The notes beneath the pieces are model-generated. The model searched no databases and was not told the origin of the DNA. It worked only from the letters and a program-made list of their open reading frames with translations. The translations under genes and the position numbers were made by a program. From IMG/VR virus record IMGVR_UViG_2923307698_000005: a DNA stretch of 16,073 nt; one strand, given 5' to 3'. Below, piece by piece: positions 1,611 to 16,073 of this stretch. The stretch's first letter is position 1, and each line of letters opens with the position of its first letter. The DNA comes from a virus (lineage: Duplodnaviria > Heunggongvirae > Uroviricota > Caudoviricetes).

Positions 1611-1923
1611 GAAATATACAGGCGGATCATCTTTCCAGGGGGAAGCGCACCAATTCATGAGGGGCGTTAATGTCTATATGGGGATCCCCACCTACCGGAA
1701 TTTTTTTCCGGTTAAACGTTAATCAGGCTGGTGGGCTTTACCTGTTCGGTAGGTGTTATGATAATCGTAATACCTTTCCCCCAATGGGGTAAAAGCATCA
1801 ACCGTAACGAAAGTCGTTATGGTTGCCACTGATACCCCAAATTTGGGTATCACGAGTAAGCCCCAAAATCTGGGTGTTACTCTTACTACCCAAACTACGG
1901 GTAGTTTCCGTAGTTTCATGGTC

Positions 1924-1943
1924 GAGTTGCAGATCTGCAACTC
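1924..1943. repeat. Perfect 20-bp palindrome GAGTTGCAGATCTGCAACTC
   Basis: Reverse complement is identical to the forward sequence, centred on AGATCT. Confidence 0.9.
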
Positions 1944-2197
1944 CCCCATTAACCACAGGCGAATTTCCGCCTTCGGTCATTCCTTAATCATCTGCGTAAT
2001 CATAATGATTATTCAGCAAGCGCAATTTTGCGCTTTGCTTAAAGTTCAGCGAGTTACCGCGCCGACTTCCTCAAATTGAGGTTTCCGAAAATATCAGCGG
2101 GTTAGCGATTAAGCTGACCATTAATTAAACTGCGAAAATGTCGTAGTTGTGAGGGGTGTAGCCAACCTATTTTTGGGCCGTCGGGAATATCAACCAG

Positions 2198-2479
2198 TTA
2201 CCGCCGCAACCGCTCCGGCTTCTTCCAGTGGTACGTTATTTTCTCCTTCTCCCGATACATCTCCACGCGGCGACGGTAGGCCAGCAACTCAAGAACTCTG
2301 GTTCGTATGTTGCGCATATCCACGCCATTAAGTTCTATACCATCACGGCGCATCACCTCAGCAACAACACGCGCATAGTTTTCGGCTGTCACGCTGTCCG
2401 GCTGCGTGGCCTGTTCGTCAGCCTGCTGGCTGATTCCGGCAACGCGGCGGATTAATCCCGTTATTTCGGCTTCTGTCAT
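2198..2479 (-). CDS. Hypothetical protein (93 aa), last gene of the packaging operon
   Basis: ATG start at 2479 with GAGG upstream; lies 14 bp downstream of the terL stop on the same strand. Basic C-terminus (HWKKPERLRR). No family recognised. Confidence 0.5.
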   Translation of the reverse strand: MTEAEITGLIRRVAGISQQADEQATQPDSVTAENYARVVAEVMRRDGIELNGVDMRNIRTRVLELLAYRRRVEMYREKEKITYHWKKPERLRR

Positions 2480-2492
2480 GCTGCTGACCTCA

Positions 2493-4154
2493 TTACACCC
2501 CGCTAAATTCTTCCAGTTTCTGGCGGTGGCTGTCGCTTATATCAAAAGCAAAATCCTCATGCTCTGCCTGGAATGTACCAAACGCCATCAGCGCCGCCAC
2601 GCTCGGGTCTATCTTGTTCGGTGATTTTTTCTTGTTCGGCTTGATATTGGCGTTCGCGTCACTCTGCATCACGACGTTACTCATCGACCAGGACAACACC
2701 GGATCGCCACGATGCACAATCACCCTGCGGTTAACAAAAACTTCGAACGATTTCGCCGCCGGACTGAATCTGAGGTAGGTTTGCGGGAACGGCTCCACCT
2801 CAAAACCTGCCCCCTGTAATTGCGTTCTGAGATGCGTGGCGTTCCACGTATCAAAGCCCACCAGCCTGATATTAAATTTCTCCGCGTCCTGCATGATGTC
2901 ATCTCTGATCCGGTCGTAATCAATGCAGTCGCCAGGCGTTGTGCGTATCCAGCCTGCTTTAGCCCACTGACGATAGATGGCGCGGTTTTTATTGGCGGGG
3001 TTCTGTAGCTGAAATTCCGGCAGATAGTGACGGGAAACCAGCATAATGGTTTTACCGACCGGAAAGGCATAGCACACGCTGGAAATATCGCTGGTTGATG
3101 ATAAGTCCAGCCCCGCGTAACACTCCTGGCCGTGTAAATCTTCCTCCGTGAACGTTCCGGCACACTCAGCCCATGCGCCGTTACCCATCCACGGGGTAGC
3201 CCCCTGGCACCAGATATTAAATCGCTTTGTCATCATCTCCACCCACTGCGACGGAATACCCCGCGCTTTCTGGATGGTTGAGGCCAGTTTTTCACGATCG
3301 ACGGAAACATCAATATTAGGGTTCGCCTTTATCCACATCGCCGGATCATCAACCTCGTTTTCGTCGTCCAGTTCGTAAATCAGTACAAAAATTGAATCGT
3401 TAACCTCTTCGCCGTCCAGGATCTGGCAGCAATAATCATAGTGCTGCTTACAGGCTGAAACGACGTTGCTGCCTGATGTGGTAATGGCAAATAACAGCCC
3501 TTCGGGACGTGCGCCCATCCCCAGCTCAAGCGCGGAATAAACGCCGTTATCGGGGTGCAAGTGGTATTCGTCCACGATGGAAAGGCTGGGGTTTGTTCCC
3601 TCGATGGTTGCCGCTTTTGCTGCCAGCGGCTTTAACAGGCTGTTGCTTTTCGGGTGTATCACCTTATGCGCCTGAATATTCACCCGCCTGCGTAACGGTC
3701 GGGATAAAAGGCACATCTGACGCGCATCATCAAAGACGATCCGCGCCTGGTCACGGCTCACCGCTGCGGTGTAGATATCCTGCTGACCGTTCTCCATAAT
3801 CAGAAACCAGTTAGCCAGAATCGCGGCGGTCGTTGATTTCGCATTTTTGCGCGGCACTTCGATAAAGGCGCTCGTATATTTGCGCCGTCCGGTGGCCTTA
3901 ACCTTAAAGCCGAGGATGCACGCAAAGGCGAACTGCTGCCACGGCTCCAGCTCAATGGGTCTGCCACGCATCGGCCCTTTTACGTGCGGGCACACCCTGG
4001 AAAAGGCAATAAACCGATCCACAACCTCACGATCGAACGTGTAAAGGGGGCTTTTAAGGTCCGAAAAGTACCGTTTAACGGCCTGTTTCAGCCGTTTACA
4101 GGCCGGAATTTTGCCCGTTTTTACGTCTTCTGCGTACTTATTCCAGGCGGTCAA
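2493..4154 (-). CDS. Terminase large subunit (553 aa)
   Basis: Translation has an ATPase P-loop-like motif (VPRKNAKST), a Walker B-like SIVDEYH, and a C-terminal nuclease-like region, as in HK97-type TerL. The only in-frame start that keeps the conserved N-terminus is TTG at 4154 with AGGA six nt upstream; it overlaps the terS 3' end by 17 nt. Confidence 0.9.
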   Translation of the reverse strand: MTAWNKYAEDVKTGKIPACKRLKQAVKRYFSDLKSPLYTFDREVVDRFIAFSRVCPHVKGPMRGRPIELEPWQQFAFACILGFKVKATGRRKYTSAFIEVPRKNAKSTTAAILANWFLIMENGQQDIYTAAVSRDQARIVFDDARQMCLLSRPLRRRVNIQAHKVIHPKSNSLLKPLAAKAATIEGTNPSLSIVDEYHLHPDNGVYSALELGMGARPEGLLFAITTSGSNVVSACKQHYDYCCQILDGEEVNDSIFVLIYELDDENEVDDPAMWIKANPNIDVSVDREKLASTIQKARGIPSQWVEMMTKRFNIWCQGATPWMGNGAWAECAGTFTEEDLHGQECYAGLDLSSTSDISSVCYAFPVGKTIMLVSRHYLPEFQLQNPANKNRAIYRQWAKAGWIRTTPGDCIDYDRIRDDIMQDAEKFNIRLVGFDTWNATHLRTQLQGAGFEVEPFPQTYLRFSPAAKSFEVFVNRRVIVHRGDPVLSWSMSNVVMQSDANANIKPNKKKSPNKIDPSVAALMAFGTFQAEHEDFAFDISDSHRQKLEEFSGV

Positions 4155-4494
4155 GCTCGTCCTCTTCTTCTGTTTCCGGTGGATTTTTACGGCGGCTTAT
4201 CGGGTCAAAACCGAGCAAGGAGGCCATTTTTATCATCACTCTTTCCGCGTCGGATTTCGCGCTTAATGCGGGGTTTCTGCTCTCTCCGCCCTGACTGTTA
4301 ACAATGCTGAACCCGCGCGCCGCAAGGTCTGCGACGGCTTTCCGGTATATCGAGTAATTGACGCAATACAGTTCCAGATTGCTCCAGTCGGCGGGAGTCA
4401 GGTCACCCCGTTCCGCAAGCTGCCGCGATTTTTCCCGCCACTGCTTCACGGCGATATCATCCAGGTAGGCGGGGGCTTTCGGTGGTCTTGCCAT
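4138..4494 (-). CDS. Terminase small subunit, P27-like (118 aa)
   Basis: ATG at 4494. Sits directly upstream of and overlapping terL. Translation resembles the P27-family small terminase (DLTPADWSNLELYCVNYSIY) with an acidic C-terminal tail. Confidence 0.8.
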   Translation of the reverse strand: MARPPKAPAYLDDIAVKQWREKSRQLAERGDLTPADWSNLELYCVNYSIYRKAVADLAARGFSIVNSQGGESRNPALSAKSDAERVMIKMASLLGFDPISRRKNPPETEEEDELDRLE

Positions 4495-4539
4495 GCTTAT
4501 TTTTTCGCCAGATTATTTTTCAAAAAATTCCCGTGCATA

Positions 4540-4610
4540 AAAATTTGAGGAGGCGGTCGGTGCCCGGCGGGGTCGGGTTTGTCCTGAAAACGCCCCCCAC
4601 CCCGTCATAC
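4540..4610. other. Candidate cos (cohesive-end) packaging site: GC-rich tract between the HNH gene and terS
   Basis: GGAGGCGGTCGGTGCCCGGCGGGGTCGGGTTTGTCC...CGCCCCCCACCCCGTC, 50-110 bp upstream of the terS start. The HNH-cos-terS arrangement is typical of HK97-like cos phages. Positional inference only. Confidence 0.3.
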
Positions 4611-4783
4611 AGCCTCATCAGCGATTGCGGAAACATTCCATAACCTCGCGGTCACGGTCGGTTAATCGCTTCGCTGTGATGCGTTCTGCGCATCCTGACG
4701 CTTTATCTTTATGCCCTGTTTCCTGTGTCTTCCATGCGTCACGCTGCCTTATAAGTCCACGGATAAGGCGGTTTTGTTCCCGC

Positions 4784-5224
4784 TCATTCATCAGCGTCAT
4801 ACATCCAGTTATTGCGGTTAGCGGCCCGTTCTTCCTCTTCACGAAATCCACCTGCGGCACGCTTACTTTTTGTTGCCGGATCAAGCCATTTCGTTTTCTG
4901 GTTATGGCACGCCTGACACAATGGTTGATGGTTCCATTCGGGCCAGAAGAGAACATCATCACCGCCATTAATCGGGATAATGTGATCCACCACCACGGCG
5001 GGCGTATATATCCCCTTCTCAAGGCATCGCACGCATAACGGGTTTTTACTCAGATACATGGCGCGGTATTTGTCCCACTGTCTGGAGTACCCACGCGCGC
5101 GGCGGTGTCCTCGTCTGGCATCCTCTGCACGCCATGCCGCCCGCCTGTGCTCCTCACACTTGCCGGACTTCACGCGCCTGTTACAGCCTGGTTCTGTGCA
5201 TCGTCTTAATGGTTGCCACGGCAT
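4784..5224 (-). CDS. HNH endonuclease, terminase-associated type (146 aa)
   Basis: Cysteine and histidine zinc-finger-like HNH motifs (CVRCLEKG, VDHIIP, NHQPLCQACHNQKT). Lies between the head-tail connector and terS. Confidence 0.85.
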   Translation of the reverse strand: MPWQPLRRCTEPGCNRRVKSGKCEEHRRAAWRAEDARRGHRRARGYSRQWDKYRAMYLSKNPLCVRCLEKGIYTPAVVVDHIIPINGGDDVLFWPEWNHQPLCQACHNQKTKWLDPATKSKRAAGGFREEEERAANRNNWMYDADE

Positions 5225-5520
5225 CAGTACACCCCCACATCACGGTAAGCCGTCCAGAGTGCACCAATCGTCATGGGTACGCGTGTTTTTGCGTTATCCG
5301 CGACAATCTGGCGATTTTCATACAGGTGAGCGATAAACATCATGCAGCCAATCTTTATGGCTGGCGTGAACTCCAGCCCGTCATCAAAGCGCCTGCCTAT
5401 GTGTATCTGGCACGCCTCAAGCGATGCGGCAATGTATCCGCTGATTAACTGGTCTTCCTCGTCGCCATCGATGCGGCAATGGAGTTTCACTTCTTCCAGG
5501 GTGATAAGTTCTTCTGTCAT
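5224..5520 (-). CDS. Head-tail connector protein, gp6-like (98 aa)
   Basis: Size, position after the head closure gene, and translation consistent with the gp6-like connector family. Its ATG overlaps the upstream stop (ATGA). Confidence 0.65.
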   Translation of the reverse strand: MTEELITLEEVKLHCRIDGDEEDQLISGYIAASLEACQIHIGRRFDDGLEFTPAIKIGCMMFIAHLYENRQIVADNAKTRVPMTIGALWTAYRDVGVY

Positions 5521-5855
5521 TTTTCCGCGCCCTCACGACAAAGAATTTCAAGGCGTGTCCTGGCGGCATCCGGCAGCGGCTGCCCGATGATATTCAGTAC
5601 ACGCCCCGCCAGCGGCCCCGTATTGACCTTTATCCGGCTGGTGGCGTTGATGTCCTTCCTGTAGCGTATCCATACCCTTACCGTTCCAGTCGCCAGTTCT
5701 GCACCCGATGAAATGGCCTCCTTGCTGCTGATCATGTTCACGCTTGCCCAGAGTGTGTGACCGTCCACCCACGTTTCGAGTATTTCGCCCGTCATGGCTC
5801 TGGTCTGTTTCAGGGTCTGAATCGTTACCCTGTCACGCAGTCGCCCTATGTTCAT
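5517..5855 (-). CDS. Head closure / head-tail joining protein (112 aa from the ATG at 5855)
   Basis: Translation MNIGRLRDRVTIQ...VRVWIRYRKDI resembles the phage head-tail joining family. The track ORF starts at 5897, but the ATG at 5855 forms an ATGA overlap with the portal stop and has GAGGGA upstream, so 5855 is preferred. Confidence 0.65.
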   Translation of the reverse strand: MNIGRLRDRVTIQTLKQTRAMTGEILETWVDGHTLWASVNMISSKEAISSGAELATGTVRVWIRYRKDINATSRIKVNTGPLAGRVLNIIGQPLPDAARTRLEILCREGAEK

Positions 5856-7063
5856 TCCGGTTTTTCTCCCTCGCTGATTTTTACTTCCTGTTTCCATGCC
5901 TGGCTGAACTCATCACCACCATCACGCGGTGACAGTCCTTCACGTTCGCGGGCTTCGTTCGGACACATAACGCCGGATTTGATGCCGCGCTCATAGGTGG
6001 CAAAGCGTTCGCCAGGTGTGGCCCGTAACAGGTCCGCGCTGTCAAACTCCACCTGATACCGGATACCAGGTACAGGCGAGGCCACCAGCAGGGCGTTTTT
6101 TATCTGCTGCTCAAAGTTCGCCAGCCACGGGCGCATCGTCATGGTGAGAAATGCGCGGCTTGCCTCGCTGAAATTGCTGTAGGTGCTGTTGCTGTATTCC
6201 TGCAAAAAAATCGGCGAGACGTTGAACATTCTGGCGATGTCTTCAATGGTGAAGCGACGGGAGGCCAGCCATTCAGCATCCTGATTACTCATGCCCAGCT
6301 GCTGATAGCTCATACCCCCTTCAAGGATGGGCGTTTTTCCGGCGTTTCTGGCCCCTTTGTAGCGTTCCAGTGCGGCTAATGCCTGTTTGCCCTTCACGCC
6401 GTCCAGCCATTCGCCTGACGTGATAACCCCTGCCGCCATCATGCCATCACGCATCACGCTCGCGCCGTGGCGTTGTTGGGCCAGCCCAAGCCCCAGCGAT
6501 TCGCGGCAGATGGTTACAGGTGAGCGCCCCATAAAACCGTCATCCGTGGAGTAACGAAGGTGGAGAACCTCCCACGGTAAATAGTTGCGGGTGTTTCCGG
6601 TGTAGGCGTCAGTGATGCAGTAGCGCCAGTTATGCTCACCTGTCTGCTCAACGTTCACCGACTGCGGCGGGTAAGGATGCAAAGCGACCGGAAAACCATC
6701 ACGCCCCCACTGAATCACCGCATAAGCATTACCGTTTAACAGGCAGTGGCGGATCATCATTCGCTTAAACTGGTAGGGGGTTTGCCATGCGTTCGGGCGC
6801 TCGTTGAGGATGTGATCGACCGGATGAGAATCAAGCCACTCGCGGGCCTCCTTCCCCTTCTCATTGCGTACCAGGTACAGGTAACACGGCATGGTAGCCA
6901 CCGCCTCAGAGATGACCGTCACGGCGTTCATGACGGCGGGCAGTGATTCCGCTGTCCCCGATGATACGTACTCACCCGCCCCCGTGTTCGATGTGCCAGC
7001 CAGCGCCATAAACTCATCAAGCGTCATGCTGCGCTGCTCTTTTTTTCTTCTGAAAGGCCACAT
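5852..7063 (-). CDS. Portal protein, HK97 family (403 aa)
   Basis: Size, position and translation consistent with HK97-type portals. ATG at 7063 with GGGGG upstream. Confidence 0.85.
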   Translation of the reverse strand: MWPFRRKKEQRSMTLDEFMALAGTSNTGAGEYVSSGTAESLPAVMNAVTVISEAVATMPCYLYLVRNEKGKEAREWLDSHPVDHILNERPNAWQTPYQFKRMMIRHCLLNGNAYAVIQWGRDGFPVALHPYPPQSVNVEQTGEHNWRYCITDAYTGNTRNYLPWEVLHLRYSTDDGFMGRSPVTICRESLGLGLAQQRHGASVMRDGMMAAGVITSGEWLDGVKGKQALAALERYKGARNAGKTPILEGGMSYQQLGMSNQDAEWLASRRFTIEDIARMFNVSPIFLQEYSNSTYSNFSEASRAFLTMTMRPWLANFEQQIKNALLVASPVPGIRYQVEFDSADLLRATPGERFATYERGIKSGVMCPNEAREREGLSPRDGGDEFSQAWKQEVKISEGEKPE

Positions 7064-7064
7064 A

Positions 7065-7637
7065 TCACACCCCCGCTAAATCCGCCCACCAGCGGCGATT
7101 ATCCGCACGCGGCATTTTTTCGGGGTGCTGCTCATACAGGGAACGGCGGGCCAGCTCCACGTCGGAATCAGGGTAAGCCGGTACGGATGTAACGGTAATT
7201 TCGTACAGTTCCGCCACCAGCACGGTGCGCACGCATGGATCTGTTGTGGTATCCCATACATCCTTACGGGAACGAAAGCCAAAGCTCATGCCGGATATAT
7301 CACCTCGTTTAACCAGTTCGATAACGTCGCGCCCTGTACTGGTATCCGGTGGGGTCAGTTCAAAGCGTAACCCTGTTTCGTCCTCTTCCAGTTTCAGCGT
7401 GCCGGAACGGGTGCGCCCCAGTAACATGCTGTGGTCATGCTCATACAGGCCGCGAACGTCATTACCCGCCGCAAGCCATTCAGTAAACGCCCCCCGCTGG
7501 AATTTTTCGTAAAACTCACCCCATAACAGTTCTGAAAGCTTATCCCAGCGAACAATGTAGCCCGTCAGCGTACCGGCTCCGCTGGTGGTGATTTCCGATG
7601 ACCGGATTTCCATACTCTTCATAATTTTTTCACCCAT
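7065..7637 (-). CDS. Prohead maturation protease, HK97 family (190 aa)
   Basis: Lies between the capsid and portal genes; translation consistent with HK97 prohead protease. Start is ambiguous between ATGs at 7637, 7622 and 7613. Confidence 0.8.
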   Translation of the reverse strand: MGEKIMKSMEIRSSEITTSGAGTLTGYIVRWDKLSELLWGEFYEKFQRGAFTEWLAAGNDVRGLYEHDHSMLLGRTRSGTLKLEEDETGLRFELTPPDTSTGRDVIELVKRGDISGMSFGFRSRKDVWDTTTDPCVRTVLVAELYEITVTSVPAYPDSDVELARRSLYEQHPEKMPRADNRRWWADLAGV

Positions 7638-7646
7638 AAAACACTA

Positions 7647-7666
7647 AAGGGGCTTTTAAGCCCCTT
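7647..7666 (-). promoter_or_regulatory. Intergenic stem-loop between the capsid and protease genes (AAGGGGCTT/AAGCCCCTT)
   Basis: Perfect inverted repeat in the 39-bp gap after the capsid stop, followed on the minus strand by UUAGUGUUUU. Consistent with a partial terminator or mRNA-stabilising hairpin that raises capsid expression relative to downstream genes. Confidence 0.35.
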
Positions 7667-7676
7667 CTGTATGCTA

Positions 7677-8834
7677 TTAATCGTCGTCCTGTGGCAGTTC
7701 CAGAATCTTGATCGCGTTCGAATCCACCACGCCACCGCCTAAATATTTCTGCGCGAAAATTTTGATGAAGCCCGGCTCTGTGAGGTTGTCCGGTCTGGTG
7801 CGAACACCTGTTTCGTGATCAACAATGTAGTAACCGCGTTTGAAGTCACCCAGGGCAATAACGTTATCCGGCATAAACTCCAGATATTCGACCGGAAGGC
7901 CCAGCAACGTATCAGGATCACCCGCCTGTAAACGGTCACGCCAGATGTAATCACCGTTCGCGTTCTTCACCTTCTGGAGTTTTGCCGCCGTCGTGGAGTT
8001 AACCACCCAGACCGCGTTTTTGCGGTATTTTTTACGTAATGCAAATTTCAGGTCGATCAGCGGGTCCGCAGATGTCCACGCCAGAGATTCGGAAGGTTTA
8101 ATTACCTGCAACGTACCAAAATCACGCTCTTTGTCGTTCTTCTCTGCACGGGGTACGGATAGAAAGCCTTTTGCTTTTTTGTCACCGTCGCCCACAACCA
8201 GATCGCTTTCTTCGGTTTCCGTGAAGGTGTCGCCAATCTCGCCCGTCAGCCATGAAAGGATGTCCACATCGGAAAAATCCACGATTTCCTGCGTGGTGCG
8301 CGGGTACGCATAGACCGGATACAGCTTAATGCTCACCTCGTTAATCTGCGGGGTGCTGGTCTGTTCGCGTGCCTTACCCTCTTCACCGTGGTTAACGGTC
8401 GCACCGCCAGCGGAAACAAGCTGCTTAAACTCGTTGCTGCTGATTTTCTTCACGGTACAGATGCGGCGCATGGTGGATTCATCCGTCAGCATTCGCATGA
8501 TTTCGGTGTTCAGTTCGGGGATAACGGTATAACCACCATCAGCGGGAACGCCTGTACTTAATGCGCGGGTTTCACCTGTCAGAATGTAGTGACGTAGTTC
8601 GGCGGGGTCAGTGGTCTGGCTGTTTTTGCCTGGTTTACTGCGCTCTTCGTCAGCAACGGCCTCAAGGCGGGAGATGTCTTTATCGAGGGATTCAGCTTTA
8701 GCGCGTAATTCGTCAAATTTTGCGCCCTCAGCATCGTTAAGGCTGCGGTTTTCTTTTTCCGCGTTCTCCAGCATGTCGCGCATCTGATTTTTAATGGCGG
8801 TTTTCTGCTGGCGTAATTCGATTATTCTCGGCAT
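7677..8834 (-). CDS. Major capsid protein, HK97 fold, with N-terminal delta (scaffold) domain (385 aa from the ATG at 8834)
   Basis: N-terminal coiled-coil-like region (IIELRQQKTAIKNQMRDMLENAEKENRSLNDAEGAKFDELRAKAESLDKDISRLEAV) followed by a capsid body. The track ORF extends to a GTG at 8882 with no ribosome-binding site; the ATG at 8834 has AGGA upstream. Confidence 0.85.
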   Translation of the reverse strand: MPRIIELRQQKTAIKNQMRDMLENAEKENRSLNDAEGAKFDELRAKAESLDKDISRLEAVADEERSKPGKNSQTTDPAELRHYILTGETRALSTGVPADGGYTVIPELNTEIMRMLTDESTMRRICTVKKISSNEFKQLVSAGGATVNHGEEGKAREQTSTPQINEVSIKLYPVYAYPRTTQEIVDFSDVDILSWLTGEIGDTFTETEESDLVVGDGDKKAKGFLSVPRAEKNDKERDFGTLQVIKPSESLAWTSADPLIDLKFALRKKYRKNAVWVVNSTTAAKLQKVKNANGDYIWRDRLQAGDPDTLLGLPVEYLEFMPDNVIALGDFKRGYYIVDHETGVRTRPDNLTEPGFIKIFAQKYLGGGVVDSNAIKILELPQDDD

Positions 8835-9044
8835 AAAAAAAGTCCTGAAGTTAAGTAAGGAACTCCAGGACGCGGCAAACACTCAACCGTTTTTCATAAG
8901 GAAATCAGCAATCGCACCGATCGTTTTCCCGCCTGGTAATGAATATTGGCGGGCACATTAACAGGCGGGAAAGTGGCCCCAGCGTCCTGGCACCACGGGC
9001 GAGAATAATCATGATTCAGTTCGGGTAAAATATGCCGATCCGGT

Positions 9045-9080
9045 CAGCGAACAACGTGGAACAACCACGAACAAATAATT
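9045..9080 (+). repeat. Site B: 10-bp-phased GAACAA direct repeats (gcGAACAAC gtgGAACAAC cacGAACAAA) upstream of the capsid operon
   Basis: Read directly. Lies just downstream (minus sense) of the terminator at 9090-9116 and about 200 bp upstream of the capsid start. A candidate promoter (TTGTTC, 16 nt, TATTTT on the minus strand) sits next to it. Confidence 0.4.
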
Positions 9081-9089
9081 TACAAAACA

Positions 9090-9116
9090 TGACAAAAAGC
9101 CGGATTGCTCCGGCTG
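9090..9116 (-). terminator. Rho-independent terminator ending the replication/early operon
   Basis: 7-bp stem AGCCGGA/TCCGGCT with loop TTGC, followed on the minus strand by UUUUUGUCAUGUUUUG. Starts 6 bp after the PerC-like stop. Confidence 0.55.
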
Positions 9117-9121
9117 TGTGA

Positions 9122-9394
9122 TTATCTGTCCTGGTAATTTCGCCATATTTCATCACCAGCACCATCCATACCCATTTCGGCATAAGTGCGATCGACCGCC
9201 TTTTTCAGGTCTCCGTAATTATCCGGCGGCTCCGGTGGCCTCTGTGCCTTCCTGGAACATTCCAGCCGTCGCATCGTGATGTGATGCCGTTCCTTGTCTG
9301 TCTCCACCAGTTGCATGACTTCACCCCATCGCGCCGACGCTCTCCGGTAAAAGCCTTTCGCCTCCAGTTCTTCCGCTATGCGGTCATGTACCAT
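9122..9394 (-). CDS. PerC-family transcriptional regulator-like protein (90 aa from the ATG at 9394)
   Basis: Translation MVHDRIAEELEAKGFYRRASARWGEVM...TDKER...RR..CSR matches my recollection of the PerC/Pch signature. The track start at 9403 is a GTG; the ATG at 9394 is preferred. Confidence 0.55.
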   Translation of the reverse strand: MVHDRIAEELEAKGFYRRASARWGEVMQLVETDKERHHITMRRLECSRKAQRPPEPPDNYGDLKKAVDRTYAEMGMDGAGDEIWRNYQDR

Positions 9395-9406
9395 CGTCCC
9401 CACCCC

Positions 9407-9817
9407 TCAGAACGGAATATCATCACCGTAAGGGTCATCGCCTCCCGCTGGTGGCTGATTACCCTGTGTGCCTGTGGTCTTGCGTCGGCTCCCACCAGGA
9501 CGTGCCGCACGGGCACTGATTACGCTGTCTGCAATAACCTGATAACCCTGCCGCGTTTCCCCGTTCTGTCCGGTCCACTGGCTGACCTGCATCGTGCCGG
9601 ATACGCTGGCAACGTCGCCTTTTTGATGTTTAGCCAGGAAGTCGGCCTGCTTACCAAATGCGATGACCGATAGCCATAACGTCGCCTGTCCATCCTGTGC
9701 CTGGCTGCATGGCAGCGATACCGCCATACGCGCCAGCGTCATCGGTGTACCCTTGCTGGTCTGTTTTACCTGCGGGTCGTCCACCAGCCGCCAGTAAGCT
9801 GCAATTTGTGCTGTCAT
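9407..9817 (-). CDS. Single-stranded DNA-binding protein (136 aa)
   Basis: OB-fold-like core (WLSVIAFGKQADFLAKHQKGDVASVSGTMQVSQWTGQNGETRQGYQV), a glycine/proline/glutamine-rich linker, and a C-terminal DDIPF tail as in bacterial SSB. GAGGTGG ribosome-binding site. Confidence 0.75.
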   Translation of the reverse strand: MTAQIAAYWRLVDDPQVKQTSKGTPMTLARMAVSLPCSQAQDGQATLWLSVIAFGKQADFLAKHQKGDVASVSGTMQVSQWTGQNGETRQGYQVIADSVISARAARPGGSRRKTTGTQGNQPPAGGDDPYGDDIPF

Positions 9818-9826
9818 ATTGCCACC

Positions 9827-10132
9827 TCAGTGAAGCGATCCGGCGTTGTTCTTTTTCATCTCTTCCATCATTTTTTCAGTGAGCATTACGCACTGAAAAC
9901 CCATGTTTTTGATGTCTACGGGCTTCATGCCTTTATCAGTGGATATCACAGGCAGAATATCCTGATACACATCGCGGTCAGGGTAACTAAGCACACAAAG
10001 CGCCCATGATGCCACGGGTGAGGATCCTTCGTCTGTTTCAACCCACCAGCCTGGTGTAGCTGCGCTTATTTGCTGAATCGTGATCCGTCCGTTGTGCTTG
10101 TAAAGTTTTTCACCAAATTTTGGTTCGCTCAT
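9827..10132 (-). CDS. Hypothetical protein (101 aa)
   Basis: ATG with GGAG upstream; ATGA overlap with the upstream gene's stop. No family recognised. Confidence 0.5.
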   Translation of the reverse strand: MSEPKFGEKLYKHNGRITIQQISAATPGWWVETDEGSSPVASWALCVLSYPDRDVYQDILPVISTDKGMKPVDIKNMGFQCVMLTEKMMEEMKKNNAGSLH

Positions 10133-10380
10133 GATTCCAACTCTCCGGTTTTAACGTTGATGGTTGTTACCTGTTCCGCTTCGGCAATCTCCCGTTCTGT
10201 CAGCGTGGCAAAGTTTGCCGCCGCCGTGGTCATGAATGCGCTTATCAGGTCGGGATGTTCCTTCGCGTATCCTTCCCGCGTGTGGCGGTCTATCGTTCTG
10301 ATTGCCACCTTTAAGGTGTGCTCAGTCATGTCTAACGCTTTATATTTTGGCTCTGTTCTGTCTCTGCGTTTTTGGGTCAT
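10129..10380 (-). CDS. Hypothetical protein (83 aa from the ATG at 10380)
   Basis: The track ORF extends to a GTG at 10410 that lies inside the iteron array; the ATG at 10380 is preferred. No family recognised. Confidence 0.45.
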   Translation of the reverse strand: MTQKRRDRTEPKYKALDMTEHTLKVAIRTIDRHTREGYAKEHPDLISAFMTTAAANFATLTEREIAEAEQVTTINVKTGELES

Positions 10381-10384
10381 TTCT

Positions 10385-10585
10385 CGCAACCTCTCACTTT
10401 TTCGCCTCACTTTTTCAAGCGTCTCACTTCGTCGCAGTTGGGATTTTTGGTTTTTCTATGTGTGTGTTTCATAAGTATTTTTTTACCCCTCACTTTTGAG
10501 GATGTATACAGGTCGAAAAGTGAGGGGGAGCGGGCTAATTTTGGCCCTCTTTCTATCCCCCTCGCTTTTGCTCCTCACTTTTATA
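10385..10585. repeat. Iteron-type replication origin: seven copies of CTCACTTTT (one inverted, one CTCGCTTTT variant) flanking an AT-rich spacer
   Basis: Copies at 10393-10401, 10406-10415, 10423-10430, 10489-10497, 10517-10525 (inverted), 10561-10569 (variant) and 10574-10582. The AT-rich core is 10441-10485. Lies immediately 3' of the replication ATPase gene. Confidence 0.6.
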
Positions 10586-11981
10586 GCGGCGCTACATCAT
10601 CCCCATCGATACGAATAACCCCATCTTTTTCCAGCTTGTACAGCCAGCGCCGGAAGTTTTTCATTTCATACCCCAGCTTTTTCATGTCATCACGTAACAT
10701 CTGGATCGTGCACTTGTCGCCGTTCTGTGTGCGTGAACGGATGCACCCCCATAGCGCGGTATGGTTTTCCGTCTTGTTCCCTGCCTCCTCGATGCGCTCC
10801 AGTTCAACAGGAGGGCGCGGATCATCCACCACCACCAGCGACGTGATTAATTCACCGTCAGCGTCGGTAAAAAGCTCCACCACGCGTAAGTCATATGCGG
10901 CTTCTTTGAGTTCCTCCGCGTCCTTCATTTTGGTGCATGAGATAACCAGCGCTTCGCTTCCTGCGTCCTCCCTGCGTATCCGGTATTCAGCATCCAGCGA
11001 AGCACGAAATGCACTGGAACCGCGCGCGCCTTTCGTCTCATCCTTGCCGGAATGGTGAACCACCAGCACCGTGGCCCCTGTGCGTCGTTTCAGTTCGTCA
11101 CAACCACGGATAAACGCCCCCATATCACGGGAATCATTTTCATCATTCCCACCAAAGCAACGCGCCAGCGTATCCAGAATAATCATGCGTACAGGTTTAC
11201 CCGTTTCCCGCTCCACCTGACGGGCAGCGATAACCATTTCATCAACATCAAGCGGGGCAGCCGGAAAGATGGGGCGGTTTACCAGATACAGATTTTTCAC
11301 CTGCTCATCGTGCACAACCTCCCAGGCTTTTACACGACGCGGAACACCTATACCGCCTTCACCAACCACATAGAGAACCGCACCATGTGCAACCCTGCGG
11401 CCTCCCCACTGGCGACCAGTGGCAACATGGCACGCCCACGATCCGGCAAGGAATGATTTATAGGACCCGCTAGCCCCGTATATGCTGCATAGCGATACCG
11501 CCGGAATAATCCCCTTAACCACGTAATCCAGTTGCGTGTCGTATCCGGTAGATCCAACGCTCATCGGTAGCGTGGTTTTTCGCTGGTGGTTTTTTTCTTC
11601 CGCCGGCTCTTTCCCGCGCACCCGTTCCAGGTATTCGCGCCAGTTCTCCCGCATATGGCTGTGCATCCCTTCGGGGTAATAATTCGCATCAGTTACACCC
11701 GCCGCCGCCAGCTTGTGCGCAATGGCATTAATATTTGATGGCCTGATGTGGCCTGCCTTGTACAGCCGGACACAATAGCGCCCCTCGTCGATGATTCTCA
11801 GGTCTGCCAGTTCATCCAGTTGATCATCAGCCAGCACAACGGGAGGCACATTATCGCCAGCCAGTCGCCCGTCCTGTTCCTGCCACTGTTTCGCATGTGC
11901 CCAGGCATCACTACCCGCAAAAATAATGACTTCGGTCATCTTGTCGTAAGGCTGTTTTTTTAAGTTCGGTGCGCTTTTCAT
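10581..11981 (-). CDS. Replication protein: RecA-fold (RepA/DnaB-like) ATPase, probable helicase or primase-helicase of the satellite (466 aa)
   Basis: Walker A GASGSYKS and Walker B-like MIILDT in a RecA-like core. Sits between the accessory ORFs and the iteron origin, as the pri-rep gene does in PICI and P4-like elements. Confidence 0.75.
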   Translation of the reverse strand: MKSAPNLKKQPYDKMTEVIIFAGSDAWAHAKQWQEQDGRLAGDNVPPVVLADDQLDELADLRIIDEGRYCVRLYKAGHIRPSNINAIAHKLAAAGVTDANYYPEGMHSHMRENWREYLERVRGKEPAEEKNHQRKTTLPMSVGSTGYDTQLDYVVKGIIPAVSLCSIYGASGSYKSFLAGSWACHVATGRQWGGRRVAHGAVLYVVGEGGIGVPRRVKAWEVVHDEQVKNLYLVNRPIFPAAPLDVDEMVIAARQVERETGKPVRMIILDTLARCFGGNDENDSRDMGAFIRGCDELKRRTGATVLVVHHSGKDETKGARGSSAFRASLDAEYRIRREDAGSEALVISCTKMKDAEELKEAAYDLRVVELFTDADGELITSLVVVDDPRPPVELERIEEAGNKTENHTALWGCIRSRTQNGDKCTIQMLRDDMKKLGYEMKNFRRWLYKLEKDGVIRIDGDDVAPL

Positions 11982-12277
11982 TTCTTGCCCCTGAATCCGT
12001 TAACCATGGTTTTCAGCTTCTGGATGTTTGCCCGTGCCCTGGCGTTGCTGGTGGGCACGTTATGCGGCGCGGTCTGTACCAGAGAAAAATCACGCCGGAA
12101 CTGATAAACAGGCATCACGCAATCATATTCGTAACCTTCACGGCGGTAGGTTACGCGCCGTTCTTCCACGCCCTTAATCATTACCGTGCCGCCGTACTGG
12201 TCGCGGTAAATATCACCGCGCGTAAATTTAGGGTGAGTGTTGCCACTGGCAGTTAAGCCAGAATATTTAAGTTTCAT
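11978..12277 (-). CDS. Hypothetical protein (99 aa)
   Basis: ATG with GGAGA upstream; its stop overlaps the replication gene start (ATGA). No family recognised. Confidence 0.5.
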   Translation of the reverse strand: MKLKYSGLTASGNTHPKFTRGDIYRDQYGGTVMIKGVEERRVTYRREGYEYDCVMPVYQFRRDFSLVQTAPHNVPTSNARARANIQKLKTMVNGFRGKK

Positions 12278-12282
12278 TATTT

Positions 12283-12516
12283 TTATTCTCCGGTGTGCTG
12301 TTCTTTATATCTGTCGTGCAATAGATCTATTTCTTGCAGTTCCATTATTACAGGCTCAAGAAGCGTTATTAATGCCGTGACAATTCTTGATTTTTGTTTG
12401 TCGCGTTCATTGTCGCCAAGTGTTTCAAGACATATGCGCAATATTTCGTACATACCTTCAGCGTAAGCAAGGGCACTAAATGCGCGGTCTATTGTTTGGT
12501 GGTAAATATCACGCAT
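12283..12516 (-). CDS. Hypothetical protein (77 aa)
   Basis: ATG with GAGGA upstream; coupled to neighbours. No family recognised. Confidence 0.5.
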   Translation of the reverse strand: MRDIYHQTIDRAFSALAYAEGMYEILRICLETLGDNERDKQKSRIVTALITLLEPVIMELQEIDLLHDRYKEQHTGE

Positions 12517-12973
12517 GGCTTACATCCTCAGGAAATTTTCTTCTATAACGCGCCTCTGCCACATATTCCGCATAATCGGCGGCGATATTCAGTACATCAA
12601 GCCCCGTTGATTTATATTCTCTCGTGGAAAGTAAGAAAAAAGCCGCTCTAATAAGTTCTGGCATTGACGAAAGCGCATCAGCCGCATCATCAGGAACGCC
12701 GGAAAATTCCTGTTTCAGGGAATTAAAACGATCATCACGCATAACCCCCCCATTTTCACAATCAGCAATCAGGATAGCTTTGGCCTCATTCAGCGCCGTA
12801 TCAGCACTAAATTGCATGACAGCCAGTGAGTGAGGAACGAAAGCACCGGCATATTCTGTTTCGCTGGTGGCGTGCTTATGTTCCCTGTCCGCGATAACAG
12901 AAATATCAATCAGCGCGTGCATCAGCGTTTTGATGGCTTCGGCGGCTGCGTCCGGTGTGGTTTTATTGTGCAT
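12509..12973 (-). CDS. Hypothetical protein (154 aa)
   Basis: ATG with AGGGGA upstream; overlaps the downstream gene start by 8 nt. No family recognised. Confidence 0.5.
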   Translation of the reverse strand: MHNKTTPDAAAEAIKTLMHALIDISVIADREHKHATSETEYAGAFVPHSLAVMQFSADTALNEAKAILIADCENGGVMRDDRFNSLKQEFSGVPDDAADALSSMPELIRAAFFLLSTREYKSTGLDVLNIAADYAEYVAEARYRRKFPEDVSHA

Positions 12974-13175
12974 AAAGCATCCCCTGAATATTCGTGTTAA
13001 TCATTCCGGCACGTTTTGTGATTTCCTGTAATGATTCCCTTGTGGCGACAATTGCTTCATCTGGTAAGTGGTAATTACACACCACGCGACCTTTATCCAC
13101 ATTGACCAGTAGCTGCCCTGTGAATTTCTCACGAAACTGAATGCGGTTAAGGTCAGTAAGTGACAGATTAATCAT
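12963..13175 (-). CDS. Hypothetical protein (70 aa from the ATG at 13175)
   Basis: AGGAGG six nt upstream of the ATG at 13175; the start overlaps the upstream stop (ATGATTAA). The track's longer ORF to 13217 has no ribosome-binding site. Confidence 0.45.
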   Translation of the reverse strand: MINLSLTDLNRIQFREKFTGQLLVNVDKGRVVCNYHLPDEAIVATRESLQEITKRAGMINTNIQGMLYAQ

Positions 13176-13365
13176 GGCGCACCTCCTGACGAATACGGGC
13201 GGCAAATACAGCAACACAACCGGACGGGCAACGGTTACGCGCTTCGCGTTCCGTCCAGGCGGTTACGTGGATGATTTGAGATTCTCCGGCACTCAGTGCC
13301 AGAAAACGCCACACAAAGGCCGTTTGTGTGTGTACAAGGTGTGGTATATGATTTACGGCAACCAT
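13168..13365 (-). CDS. Hypothetical protein (65 aa from the ATG at 13365), first gene of the minus-strand early operon
   Basis: AGGAG five nt upstream of the ATG at 13365. The track's extension to 13467 would run through operator palindromes and a hairpin. Confidence 0.4.
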   Translation of the reverse strand: MVAVNHIPHLVHTQTAFVWRFLALSAGESQIIHVTAWTEREARNRCPSGCVAVFAARIRQEVRHD

Positions 13366-13445
13366 AACGGCTCCTAGTTTACGTTGTTGGTTAGAAGCCC
13401 CGTTACTGCTCCTACAGTGCGGGGCTTTGCTTTTTGTGTTGATTG

Positions 13446-13491
13446 TGTGTAATGTGTCATTACACATAAATACATTACATGAGGTGTAATT
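13446..13491. promoter_or_regulatory. Paired operator-like inverted repeats in the divergent control region: TGTGTAATG-TGT-CATTACACA (13446-13466) and CATTACA-N5-GTGTAAT (13473-13491)
   Basis: Read directly. Four copies of the TGTAATG/CATTACA half-site between the minus-strand early operon and the plus-strand Arc-like gene, overlapping the Arc-like gene's ribosome-binding site. Confidence 0.45.
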
Positions 13492-13494
13492 AAC

Positions 13495-13674
13495 GTGTCA
13501 ATACACAAAAACGAAAGGCGTGGTAATCCTCCGTTCCAGTTCCGTTTAGATCCTGACTTACGGGAAAAGATGGAAAAGGCACAACAACAGGACGGCGATG
13601 ATTCTCTTGCTGCCTGGATAAAGCGAATAATCCGCAAAGAATTACAGCAACGCGGCATAGAACCCAAAGGATAA
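13495..13674 (+). CDS. Arc-family ribbon-helix-helix DNA-binding protein (59 aa, GTG start)
   Basis: Not in the ORF track (under 60 aa). GTG at 13495 with GAGG ten nt upstream. Translation VSIHKNERRGNPPFQFRLDPDLREKMEKAQQQDGDDSLAAWIKRIIRKELQQRGIEPKG matches the Arc-type pattern: a PPxFxLRL beta-strand followed by two helices. Confidence 0.6.
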   Translation: MSIHKNERRGNPPFQFRLDPDLREKMEKAQQQDGDDSLAAWIKRIIRKELQQRGIEPKG

Positions 13675-13731
13675 AAACTATCAGCGCCGTGGTGTGAGGA
13701 ACTACGGCGCATTTCTTTACAGGAGTAGACA

Positions 13732-13917
13732 ATGAACAACGAAGAATTACGGGAAATCGCATTATCCATACTTGAAAGACAGGTAGAAAAAAAATTAAGA
13801 GAAATGGATGAAATGCCTGACCATGAACAGGAAGCAAGGCCAAAAAGATTTGCCCTTGAGGATTTTCTTAAAAATTGCCCAAGAAAGATGAGATCGTGGC
13901 GTTGTTGTCCGCCCTGA
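13732..13917 (+). CDS. Hypothetical small protein (61 aa), cotranscribed with the Arc-like gene
   Basis: ATG with AGGAG six nt upstream; charged, helical-looking translation; followed by an intrinsic terminator. Confidence 0.5.
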   Translation: MNNEELREIALSILERQVEKKLREMDEMPDHEQEARPKRFALEDFLKNCPRKMRSWRCCPP

Positions 13918-13994
13918 TGACAGATTTGCCAACCAGCCCAAAATGTGGCATCGTTGTCGATGCATAGTGTAATCAACATGTATATCATATTTTT

Positions 13995-14021
13995 GCGACC
14001 ATCATAGGTCGCATTTTTTTT
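13995..14021 (+). terminator. Rho-independent terminator of the plus-strand Arc-like operon
   Basis: Stem GCGACC/GGTCGC with loop ATCATA, followed by ATTTTTTTT. Confidence 0.6.
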
Positions 14022-14074
14022 GCCTGTAATCCGGCAATTGTGGCGCTTCTTCACACAGTTGATATAATTCCAAT

Positions 14075-14145
14075 GCTCATATTTATTTTTTGTGCAGCAG
14101 GTTAATCGTTCACAAAGGCGCTCAGGTAACTGGGCGCTTTTTGTT
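14075..14145 (+). ncRNA. Candidate small RNA, about 70 nt, with its own promoter and terminator
   Basis: Extended -10 promoter TGaTATAAT at 14060-14068, predicted start near 14075, and a strong intrinsic terminator at 14118-14145 (stem GCGCTCAG/CTGGGCGC with one G-U pair, loop GTAA, then TTTTTGTT). No plausible ORF inside. Confidence 0.3.
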
Positions 14146-14291
14146 ATGCCTGAAAAACCCCAATTTTGTTGTTTTTCAGTTTCACCAGGGCGAACGAATC
14201 CCCGCCCACGTTCTGGCGTATATTCAATCTTCATGGTTATAGCTCTGTGTTCAGATGATTGATGTGTGGCGGCTGTGTGCCGCCAGCGTGA

Positions 14292-14480
14292 TTAATGAAC
14301 TGCCTTGCAGCTATCCTTCCAGGCCAGAACCTCGGATAAAGACCAGCCAACGGAACGACCGCCAAGTTTACGACGTGATGGGAATTGTCCGGCCTTTTCC
14401 AGGCGGTAGCGACACGTACGGCTAAGGCCGGTTAGTTTTTTGCATTCTTTTTCACGTATAAACCGATCAGTGCTTAACAC
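14292..14480 (-). CDS. alpA: AlpA-family transcriptional regulator / excisionase-like protein (62 aa, GTG start)
   Basis: Translation LTGLSRTCRYRLEKAGQFPSRRKLGGRSVGWSLSEVLAW matches the AlpA/Xis-type helix-turn-helix pattern. The ORF has no internal ATG; the GTG at 14480 is preceded by AGGGGG. Lies immediately downstream of the integrase gene. Confidence 0.8.
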   Translation of the reverse strand: MLSTDRFIREKECKKLTGLSRTCRYRLEKAGQFPSRRKLGGRSVGWSLSEVLAWKDSCKAVH

Positions 14481-14750
14481 TATTGCCCCCTTTCGTTTCT
14501 TAAAGAGTCATCAGGTGTCTTATTGTGTCGTATTGTTCCCGCTAGAGTGATGAATGGCAAATACTGAGGATGTATGATTTACAGAAAATGAAACAGTAAG
14601 AATAAAATCTTTTAAATTCATGTTAATACAAAGGCATAAAATATTGTTCCATGCCTTTTTTCTCGCTCTTTAAAGAGTGATTCGCTAGTGTATAAAAACC
14701 AGTAACACATTAAAAATCAGCCACTTATAAATCCGTACGCTTTTTCGCCT

Positions 14751-14800
14751 CTTGTTCGTAGTTGTTCCACATTGTTGCTCATTGTTGCACGTTGTATCTG
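14751..14800 (-). repeat. Site C: four to five 10-bp-phased (C/G)AACAA repeats on the minus strand (gtgCAACAAt gagCAACAAt gtgGAACAAc tacGAACAAg)
   Basis: Read directly. The minus-strand string GTGGAACAACtACGAACAA matches site B (GTGGAACAACcACGAACAA) at 18 of 19 positions. Lies 44-93 bp downstream of the integrase stop. Confidence 0.4.
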
Positions 14801-14843
14801 TTCGCATATCCAGTATGCGCATACTGAAAAAACACGAAAAAAA

Positions 14844-16073
14844 TTATTTTCTTCTGGCTACTGGTAGTGCGGTTACGTTTTCATGTGTTCCCGCCAGTAT
14901 CCCTAACCGCTCCATCCACATATCCAGCGCATTGCGTTTAGCATCCAGATAACGGGAATGATTATAAACTCGCTGCATTCCTGGCATCTGGTGGCCTGTA
15001 AGCTGCTCCACGACGTGAGGATCCACGCCTAAATCGTTCAGCATCGTTGTAAAGGTGCGCCGGATGTCATGTAGTGACCAGTGAGGGTGATTTAGCCTCC
15101 TGTGCGCTAATCTGCCGTACTGCGACACGCTTGTTTCCTGTTTCACTTCCCCCAGCAATAAGCCCGTGTGCCTGTTCTGCTCCACCAGCTGCGTGACGAA
15201 CGGCAGTATTGCTTCCGGTATGGGCCGGAATATGGCTACCTTCGTTTTGCTGTGCTCCTTCGGAACAGTCCAGAGCATTTCGGTAAAATCCCACTCGCCG
15301 ATCTCCGATAACCTAAGTTCGACCGTCCGGCATCCGAACACAATCAGGAGGCGGATTAGCGCGATGTAGTAGGGGGAGAATATTTTTTTGTCCAGTGCCT
15401 GCAATAATTCGCCAAGTTCTTTGTTGCTTAAGACACGCTCGCTTATATCCGGTTTTTTCCCAACGTCCGCCACACTCATATCATCAAGAACGTTGCTGAT
15501 TGCATAGCGCCGCTTCCGGCAGAACTTAAGCGCCTGCTTGCATGTCTGTAGCAGGAACCCGGCGGAAACAGGGGCTTGCTTTGCCACCCGATCAAAACAG
15601 GCCAGCCAGTGCCGTAGCTCGCATTTATCCAGCGGCATAGGGCCAATGTGCTGTATTACGTGATTATTTAGCCGCTTTTTCAGTGGGTCATAATCCACAC
15701 GGTTTTCCTTTGCGTACGACTCAAGCCAGTAGGTGAGCGCATCACCAACCGTTACCGGCTTTAACGCTTCCTGTACGGTGTAATTAAGCTCATGACGTGG
15801 ATTTTTCCCCTCTGCCAGCCATGCGCGACACTGGGCGGCTTTTTCCCTGGCTGATTTCAGGCTCAGATCAGGATAATTTCCCAGCTTAATGCGTTCCGGT
15901 GGTGCCCCCCTTCCCGTTCCGGCCCTGTAAGTGAAATACCAGGTTAAAAGGCCACTGGTTGAATGCCTGACGCTCAGGTTTCCACCGTCATTAAGAAAGG
16001 CTGTTTTTTGGGCGGGTGTGCCGTTGATTTTCCTCAGCTGTGTATCGCTCAGTTTGTTAAGTGCTCTGCTCAT
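14844..16073 (-). CDS. Tyrosine site-specific integrase, P4-like (409 aa)
   Basis: Catalytic-domain motifs near the C-terminus (HDIRRTF, GHQMPGMQRVYNHSRY) and an N-terminal DNA-binding region. The ATG is the reverse complement of the last three bases of the window. Confidence 0.93.
   Translation of the reverse strand: MSRALNKLSDTQLRKINGTPAQKTAFLNDGGNLSVRHSTSGLLTWYFTYRAGTGRGAPPERIKLGNYPDLSLKSAREKAAQCRAWLAEGKNPRHELNYTVQEALKPVTVGDALTYWLESYAKENRVDYDPLKKRLNNHVIQHIGPMPLDKCELRHWLACFDRVAKQAPVSAGFLLQTCKQALKFCRKRRYAISNVLDDMSVADVGKKPDISERVLSNKELGELLQALDKKIFSPYYIALIRLLIVFGCRTVELRLSEIGEWDFTEMLWTVPKEHSKTKVAIFRPIPEAILPFVTQLVEQNRHTGLLLGEVKQETSVSQYGRLAHRRLNHPHWSLHDIRRTFTTMLNDLGVDPHVVEQLTGHQMPGMQRVYNHSRYLDAKRNALDMWMERLGILAGTHENVTALPVARRK

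Follow-up and report, generated by a model that had tools for sequence, protein, structure and literature searches.

A predicted iteron replication origin 3' of a RepA-family helicase gene in an Escherichia coli cf-PICI-like satellite, and covariation of its repeats with one helicase residue

The gap between a satellite replication gene (rep) and its 83-aa neighbour (10381–10583) in the 16,073-nt stretch of viral DNA analysed here (the window) is, judged by comparison with related loci, very probably the Rep-binding vegetative replication origin of a cf-PICI-like satellite. An origin bound by its own initiator had been proposed in the initial annotation, and this proposal agrees with conservation of the repeats, with covariation of the Rep C-terminal domain, with exchange of rep and the gap as a cassette, and with the published layout of PICI origins. 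Across related loci, one residue of the helicase appears to choose the DNA repeat that is recognised.

The satellite and its repeat array

The window carries an E. coli satellite inserted between roxA and phoQ (Table 1). Outside positions 10383–11834 it is 93–97% identical to Sp7 of E. coli O157:H7 strain Sakai, which occupies the same roxA–phoQ site. A supplement of PMC6092414 lists Sp7 as the same 15.5-kb element as in O157:H7 EDL933, the strain that gave its name to EcCIEDL933, the prototype of capsid-forming PICIs (10.1101/2022.09.08.507074). The near-identity to the Sakai Sp7/EDL933 element therefore identifies the window as a cf-PICI-like phage satellite. An AlpA-like HTH protein and the PerC-family protein are the regulators present, and the rep-ori region is found at a coverage of at least 80% in 587 of 5,426 complete E. 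coli genomes.

A shorter island of ~10 kb at the same site in E. coli O157:H7 NE 1092-2 (L001, 6388–16824) carries a rep-ori module 99.7% identical to that of the window, together with a different packaging set (small terminase, head decoration protein and major capsid protein, with no portal or large terminase annotated), so the replication module moves between satellite types. Separately, the PerC-family gene of the window is the counterpart of pchE in Sakai Sp7; PICI PerC/Pch proteins are reported to activate or repress the LEE pathogenicity island (PMC6092414, PMC11773190).

Table 1. Features of the window, with iterons numbered from the rep stop codon
Feature	Position	Strand	Basis or remark
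phoQ, 3' part	1–1461	+	start of the window; all that follows belongs to a mobile element with its genes on the minus strand
HK97-type capsid, protease, portal and large terminase genes	satellite part of the window	-	
PerC-family regulator gene	9122–9403	-	
SSB gene	9407–9817	-	two genes downstream of the origin gap
101-aa gene	between the 83-aa and SSB genes	-	
83-aa gene	10129–10380	-	phrog_1231, function unassigned; start at ATG 10380
Whole putative origin, rep stop codon to ATG of the 83-aa gene	10381–10583	-	repeats, conservation, lost as a unit with rep in Sakai Sp7
Iteron 7, direct, exact; AAAAGTGAGAGG on the rep strand, 3' GAGAGG Shine-Dalgarno-like	10393–10401	-	sequence only
Iteron 6, direct, exact; includes GTG 10408–10410 of the spurious ORF extension	10406–10414	-	
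Iteron 5, CGAAGTGAG, direct, two mismatches	10423–10431	-	in register with the +151 copy of relatives
AT-rich spacer, candidate DNA-unwinding element, GC 0.24	10441–10485	.	class-dependent presence in relatives
Iteron 4, direct, right dyad arm	10489–10497	-	exact copy; dyad with iteron 3
Central palindrome TGTATACA between the dyad arms	10503–10510	.	GTATACA invariant in alignment with four E. coli relatives
Iteron 3, sole inverted copy, left dyad arm on the rep strand	10516–10524	+	inverted copy at +41 to +58 in nearly every related locus
Iteron 2, AAAAGCGAG, direct, one mismatch	10561–10569	-	matches the +13 copy of relatives
Iteron 1, AAAAGTGAG (rep strand), direct, exact	10574–10582	-	overlaps rep TAA 10581–10583; +1 copy in relatives of most classes
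Codons of the C-terminal winged-helix domain, residues 400–466	10584–10784	-	
Codon of Asn442, which caps the N-terminus of the presumed recognition helix and covaries with the iteron base (TG-A-G)	10656–10658	-	covariation, structure model
rep, 466 aa, RepA-family (AAA_25, RecA-fold) helicase with N-terminal and C-terminal winged-helix domains, proposed initiator	10581–11981	-	Pfam, 1g8y, RefSeq 'helicase RepA family protein'
DUF4222 gene	11978–12277	-	
Integrase gene	14844–16073	-	followed by several small genes

The intergenic gap of ~200 bp between rep and the 83-aa gene (10381–10580) is filled by repeats. The 9-mer CTCACTTTT occurs five times in exact form, on the plus strand at 10393, 10406, 10489 and 10574 and on the minus strand at 10516–10524, and degenerate copies are present as CTCGCTTTT at 10561 (one mismatch) and CTCACTTCG at 10423 (two mismatches). 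All seven copies of the initial annotation, six direct and one inverted, are found in the gap, and its placement of the array immediately 3' of the replication ATPase gene is borne out by the first iteron, which overlaps the rep stop codon. Two details were amended: the single substituted copy corresponds to that at 10561 but the copy at 10423 is also degenerate, and the N19 given for the inverted pair measures 18 nt.

Read on the rep strand from the stop codon, direct copies at +0 and +13 are followed by the inverted copy at +56, a direct copy at +85, an AT-rich stretch at ~+95 to +140, direct copies at +151, +168 and +181, and the ATG at +201, with the last iteron 12 nt from the ATG at 10380. 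The AT-rich stretch (10441–10485) has a GC content of 0.24 compared to 0.51 for the window, and lies within an iteron-free gap of ~57 bp that is flanked by four iterons at 10489–10582 and three at 10393–10431. The only inverted copy sits on the same side of this stretch as its partner, and the dyad that they form adjoins the stretch rather than spanning it.

The exact 9-mer is absent from the remainder of the 16-kb window and two occurrences of the 7-mer AGTGAGG in the other 15.7 kb are approximately at chance level; the scan of the window with these two strings found no second iteron cluster. Clustering of copies of one 9-mer within 200 nt was also evaluated in 300 dinucleotide-preserving shuffles of the window, in which the largest cluster comprised two copies in 275 shuffles, three in 22, and four in 3, and five copies were reached in 0 of 300. 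The repeat array is real and lies beyond chance.

Covariation of iterons with Rep residue 442

Rep matches a single Pfam domain, AAA_25 (PF13481; E = 2.4e-43), and aligns with the structure of RSF1010 RepA (1g8y) over residues 150–321 (E = 0.005). Modelled alone, the C-terminal domain forms a confident winged helix, closest to Orc/Cdc6 winged-helix domains, in which residue 442 caps the third predicted helix. The third helix is the recognition-helix position in winged-helix DNA-binding domains. A fold search with the full-length Rep model, in which the helicase core is partly poorly modelled (pTM 0.44), returned noise only, and a tblastn search against phages matched the helicase core and not the C-terminal domain, with the exception of a Salmonella contig filed among phages.

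In four E. coli relatives with 77–91% DNA identity, the gap has the same length and an iteron occupies each position seen in the window, and the sequence between iterons has partly diverged. Nearly all of their iterons read CCCACTTTT rather than CTCACTTTT (CCCAC versus CTCAC), a concerted change of the kind expected if the sites are bound by a single protein that co-evolves with them. Divergence between the Rep proteins of these relatives and that of the window falls mostly in the last 66 residues; for L002, identity is 96% in the N-terminal domain, 98% in the helicase core and 81% in the C-terminal domain. Within the motif EMK-N-FRRW, Asn442 of the window is replaced by His in 4/4 of the E. 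coli relatives.

Scanning one genome per bacterial species yielded 80 loci encoding relatives with 49–72% identity, distributed across Xenorhabdus, Pectobacterium, Serratia, Morganella, Erwinia, Pantoea, Kosakonia, Enterobacter and other Enterobacterales genera, with one locus outside Enterobacterales in an Oceanospirillaceae metagenome-assembled genome. Motifs were sought de novo, with no prior pattern, in the 245 nt surrounding every rep stop codon, and one emerged for each class of the residue aligned with 442: (i) in the N class (K-N-F), AAGTGAGGA, with a TGAG-type sequence (GTGAG or ATGAG) as the top motif in 29 of 30 loci; (ii) in the H class (K-H-F), AAGTGGGGA, with a TGGG-type top motif in all 15 loci; (iii) in the K class (K-K-F), AAGTGGGGGA, in most of 29 loci and ambiguous in a few; (iv) in the S class (K-S-F), AAGTGCGGCA, in 8 of 8 loci; and (v) in the G class (K-G-F), AA[AG]TGCGC at P0114 and P0119, close to the S class. 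Asn is found with GTGAG, His or Lys with GTGGG, and Ser or Gly with GTGCG. The number of iterons, which the initial annotation had taken as a point on which its proposal would stand or fall, is conserved along with their positions in diverged relatives, and the positions are kept in ~80 related loci.

A prospective check was made on proteins picked, before their DNA was seen, from a protein search that gave 2,425 database homologues: P0038 (K-N-M) carries AAAAGTGAG, as predicted, and P0114 and P0119, which represent the new K-G-F class, carry TGCG-type iterons. On a neighbour-joining tree of helicase cores delimited by positional slicing, the class of residue 442 undergoes at least 13 state changes, with a residue–iteron link across 79 loci. 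Core identity across classes reaches 98% (H/N), 96% (H/S) and 93% (G/S), and within a class falls to as low as 49%. These repeated switches, together with the near-identical cores across classes, argue that the residue–iteron link is not a by-product of whole-gene ancestry. Asn pairing with adenine, and His or Lys pairing with guanine, match the preferences usually seen between amino acids and bases. The proposed residue–base contact is a correlation, and the classes are also distinguished by other positions of the C-terminal domain.

The same association between Rep and its repeats is apparent in Sakai Sp7 (L086, 5256–7601), in which the segment equivalent to window positions 10383–11834, that is rep and the gap, is swapped for an unrelated helicase and different repeats: a 710-aa DUF927 + HTH_56 (Cch-like) protein is encoded there, and the 370-bp gap after its gene contains TAACCCGCA 11 times. 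Homology between the window and Sp7 breaks off at 11835, in the 5' part of rep, and begins again at 10382, two bases ahead of the 83-aa start codon. The DUF4222, 83-aa, SSB and PerC genes are the same in both elements; because these flanking genes are unchanged while the repeats differ, none of them reads the repeats, and only Rep tracks them. Satellites that are otherwise near-identical have thus exchanged rep and the gap as a single cassette.

Residues 1–125 of Rep (11627–11981) form a confidently modelled alpha/beta domain that matches part of the phage 'DNA primase' family phrog_864. The corresponding N-terminal coding DNA is 78–83% identical to the start of the unrelated Sp7 replication gene. 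That two different helicases share this module suggests that both act with the same partner, possibly the product of the adjacent DUF4222 gene or a host factor.

Architecture of the putative origin and competing explanations

The single inverted copy and its direct neighbour at 10489 belong to an exact inverted pair, CCCCTCACTTTT-N18-AAAAGTGAGGGG, with arms at 10486–10497 and 10516–10527 and the whole dyad spanning 10486–10527. A dyad with 5-nt cores (CxCAC ... GTGxG) was found in 77 of 81 non-redundant loci, with a core spacing of N24 in 68 of these 81 loci and N26 in 8, including the window. The dyad centre is always TA-rich, with TGTATACA in the window and TGTATATA or CATATATAC elsewhere, and a TGTATA(C/T)A or CATATATAC element occupies the centre in all five specificity classes. 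The plan is also common to all classes, comprising two direct copies at the stop codon, the inverted pair, and then direct copies. The AT-rich spacer is less constant: N-class, K-class and E. coli H-class loci have it (minimum GC over 40 nt of 0.10–0.28), but the S and G classes and several other H-class loci do not (0.33–0.50). The 45-bp AT-rich spacer around which the initial annotation had arranged the copies is present in the window, but is not the conserved heart of the array; as the classic model requires such a spacer, its absence from several related origins leaves the melting site uncertain. Since the dyad is near-constant while the spacer is missing in several relatives, the inverted iteron pair around TGTATACA, rather than the AT-rich spacer, is regarded on comparative grounds as the putative origin core. 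Relatives without the spacer (L038, L050, L081, L085, L032 and similar loci) share CTGAAACCC(G/T)C directly after the dyad, at ~+90 to +110 from the rep stop codon.

In the mechanism that we propose, Rep would be a self-loading initiator-helicase combining a RecA-fold RepA-type motor with a C-terminal winged helix. The winged-helix domain would read the 9–12-bp iterons, (C)CCTCACTTTT, or AAAAGTGAGG on the rep strand, with Asn442 presumably contacting the A of TG-A-G. Rep protomers may bind the divergent pair around the central palindrome and the direct iterons on both sides, and two Rep rings could assemble on the dyad in opposite orientation. Melting would follow at the TA-rich centre of the dyad, in the neighbouring 45-bp AT-rich spacer, or in both, and Rep hexamers might load onto the single strands with no separate loader, as has been shown for SaPI Reps (PMC9371898). 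The satellite SSB would then cover the strands, and host priming and polymerase functions would finish initiation. We advance only tentatively, as possible though short of probable, a reading in which origin specificity is set largely by the single N-cap residue (N reading A, H or K reading G, and S or G going with C, at the position after TG) and the core origin is a fixed-geometry divergent pair hosting two self-loading RecA-fold hexamers.

The window Rep has no primase domain recognisable with Pfam, a point that speaks against the origin model, and priming in the E. coli element probably relies on the host. Relatives in Pectobacterium, Xenorhabdus, Serratia and Morganella (L058, L007 and others) carry the helicase and winged-helix unit fused to a Zn-ribbon + Toprim primase. 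This primase shares 42% identity with its counterpart in P4 alpha (E = 1e-56), and the helicase and DNA-binding parts of these relatives are unrelated to P4 alpha.

The downstream boundary of the array was also clarified. The GTG at 10410 that would extend the 83-aa ORF sits within an iteron, and the extension is closed by in-frame stop codons in L002–L004; together with the homology boundary with Sp7 at 10382 and the 252-nt form of the gene annotated by RefSeq, this upholds the earlier view that the extension is spurious and that ATG 10380 is the true start. For the 83-aa gene, no Shine-Dalgarno-like sequence is seen other than that of iteron 7, 9 nt ahead of the ATG, such that origin and translation signals overlap, and in H-class relatives a purine-rich iteron occupies the same Shine-Dalgarno-like role. 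The plus-strand ORFs at 10070–10474, 10302–10499 and 10372–11058 are antisense to conserved genes or repeats. Two Rfam matches fell far below gathering scores, neither of them meaningful, and a DnaA-box scan gave no box in 10381–10583 and no excess in the window.

The overlap of the last iteron with the likely Shine-Dalgarno sequence of the 83-aa gene could also be taken to indicate that the array is mainly transcriptional in function, as a terminator or attenuator hairpin or as an operator for control of the downstream operon by Rep or some other regulator. The rep-strand RNA can indeed form a hairpin from the 10561 and 10516 copies, followed by ACUUUUCG (dG of -41.8 kcal/mol, z of -3.3). However, the U-tract comprises 4 residues, the terminator scan gave only a match on the plus strand (the wrong strand) and was blank on the coding strand, and the sigma-70 promoter scan of 10000–11000 found no promoter-like site. 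Such a hairpin would, moreover, require two copies rather than seven at conserved positions, and the AlpA-like HTH, PerC and flanking genes, being unchanged in Sp7 despite wholly different repeats, are not readers of the array. We therefore judge a mainly transcriptional function to be very unlikely, although a transcriptional or translational role on the 83-aa gene could coexist with origin function.

Also very unlikely, in our assessment, is an array that serves as a Rep-binding cis-acting helper comparable to crr of P4, with opening and initiation elsewhere in the island. There is precedent in P4, where the 8-bp repeat cluster 3' of alpha is annotated as crr and the origin lies ~4.5 kb away, but the window is without a second iteron cluster, and the region 3' of rep in PICIs is itself the origin (PMC6092414). 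The probability that the array is a chance or neutral low-complexity feature is close to negligible: the T-richness of the strand, and nothing more, points in this direction, whereas the shuffles failed to reproduce five copies and the iteron positions are conserved across genera while their sequence shifts in concert. A Rep-binding origin is the explanation that we retain as very probable.

Relation to known replicons

The closest parallels by layout are the PICIs and SaPIs. According to PMC6092414, Gram-negative PICIs carry two iteron sets around an AT-rich region 3' of rep, the rep-ori of EcCICFT073 drives plasmid replication and deletion of its ori abolishes replication, and four Pri-Rep alleles are mentioned for E. 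coli PICIs. In SaPIs, the C-terminal winged helix of Rep binds iterons that are opposite in orientation across the AT-rich region (PMC9371898). The window shares with SaPIbov1, SaPI1 and the EcCICFT073 pri-rep-ori (i) an origin 3' of the initiator-helicase gene, with iterons on both sides of an AT-rich stretch; (ii) a C-terminal winged helix setting specificity, which is predicted here and suggested by covariation; and (iii) a module located within a satellite with int, an AlpA-like regulator and packaging genes (PMC6092414, PMC9371898). The systems nevertheless differ in several respects. The iteron consensus is 9–12 bp in the window compared to 5–6 bp in SaPIs, and the iterons are mostly direct with a single inverted copy, with an AT-rich spacer that is not universal among relatives of the window Rep. 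The motor of the window Rep is of the RecA-fold RepA/AAA_25 type (SF4-like), whereas that of SaPI Rep is SF3/MCM-like and that of Sp7 is DUF927/Cch-type; in the Pfam comparison, the window Rep matched AAA_25 only, with no match to the SaPI Rep/Cch family core (DUF927). EcCICFT073 carries a pri-rep gene, and the likeness to the window described here is one of layout.

P4 alpha is likewise a satellite-encoded multifunctional initiator with a C-terminal domain that binds 8-bp repeats, a cluster of which lies directly 3' of the gene. However, BLASTP of the window Rep against P4 alpha gave no significant similarity (E = 0.38), the P4 alpha helicase is D5_N/DUF5906/Pox_D5 rather than AAA_25, and the P4 sites are split into ori and crr whereas those of the window form one cluster. 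The helicase core of Rep is distantly homologous to the hexameric helicase RepA (AAA_25) of the IncQ plasmid RSF1010, and the RSF1010 origin similarly consists of iterons and an AT-rich segment. RSF1010 divides these tasks, with 20-bp iterons recognised by RepC, a protein distinct from the helicase, and priming by RepB'; the window Rep combines helicase and DNA-binding domain in one polypeptide, and the window iterons measure 9–12 bp. Rep_3 plasmids (pPS10, R6K, RK2, F) resemble the window in having direct repeats bound by their own winged-helix initiator beside an AT-rich unwinding element (PMC4980987). Their initiators, however, are not helicases and recruit host DnaA and DnaB, their iterons are 17–22 bp, and Pfam identified no Rep_3 domain in the window Rep. 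Outside bacteria, SV40 large T and papillomavirus E1 are initiator-helicases that act on inverted short repeats with fixed spacing and an easily melted centre, with an AT-rich tract adjacent. This likeness is a functional analogy only: these are eukaryotic systems whose SF3 AAA+ proteins bind the origin through a different fold and have no homology to Rep. By analogy, the layout suggests two hexamers assembling in opposite orientation.

That PICIs have an iteron origin 3' of rep is known in general from published work, and the value of the present analysis lies in detail; the window allele itself may already be drawn in Fig. 2a of PMC6092414. Searching the literature for the iteron strings gave hits to unrelated primer sequences only, the supplements of PMC6092414 contain no iteron sequences, and an origin is not discussed in the cf-PICI paper (10.1101/2022.09.08.507074) or the EcCIMP1 paper. 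Relative to the searchable literature, three elements appear to be new: an initiator of RepA/AAA_25 type in place of an SF3 or Cch-type one, one residue of the recognition helix that tracks an iteron base, and a fixed-geometry dyad as the universal core.

These details supply origin coordinates for a common E. coli satellite replicon, and point to satellites at one chromosomal site swapping initiator and origin as a cassette, even across unrelated helicase families. With a one-residue rule, the parallel replication of several satellites within a single cell could be explained, and orthogonal replicons might be built. If the rule is true, it would amount to a simple re-programmable code through which co-resident satellites keep orthogonal replicons, and the window Rep would belong to a class of self-loading SF4-like initiator helicases for which our literature searches found no biochemical study.

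Apart from the replication module, the window is rich in the Chi sequence GCTGGTGG, with 16 sites at 1727–15189 (7 on the plus and 9 on the minus strand), of which 14 lie within the satellite. This count of 16 per 16 kb compares to 0.6 expected and a maximum of 4 in dinucleotide shuffles, and the density is several-fold greater than the E. coli genome average. The Chi excess may shield linear or concatemeric satellite DNA from RecBCD.
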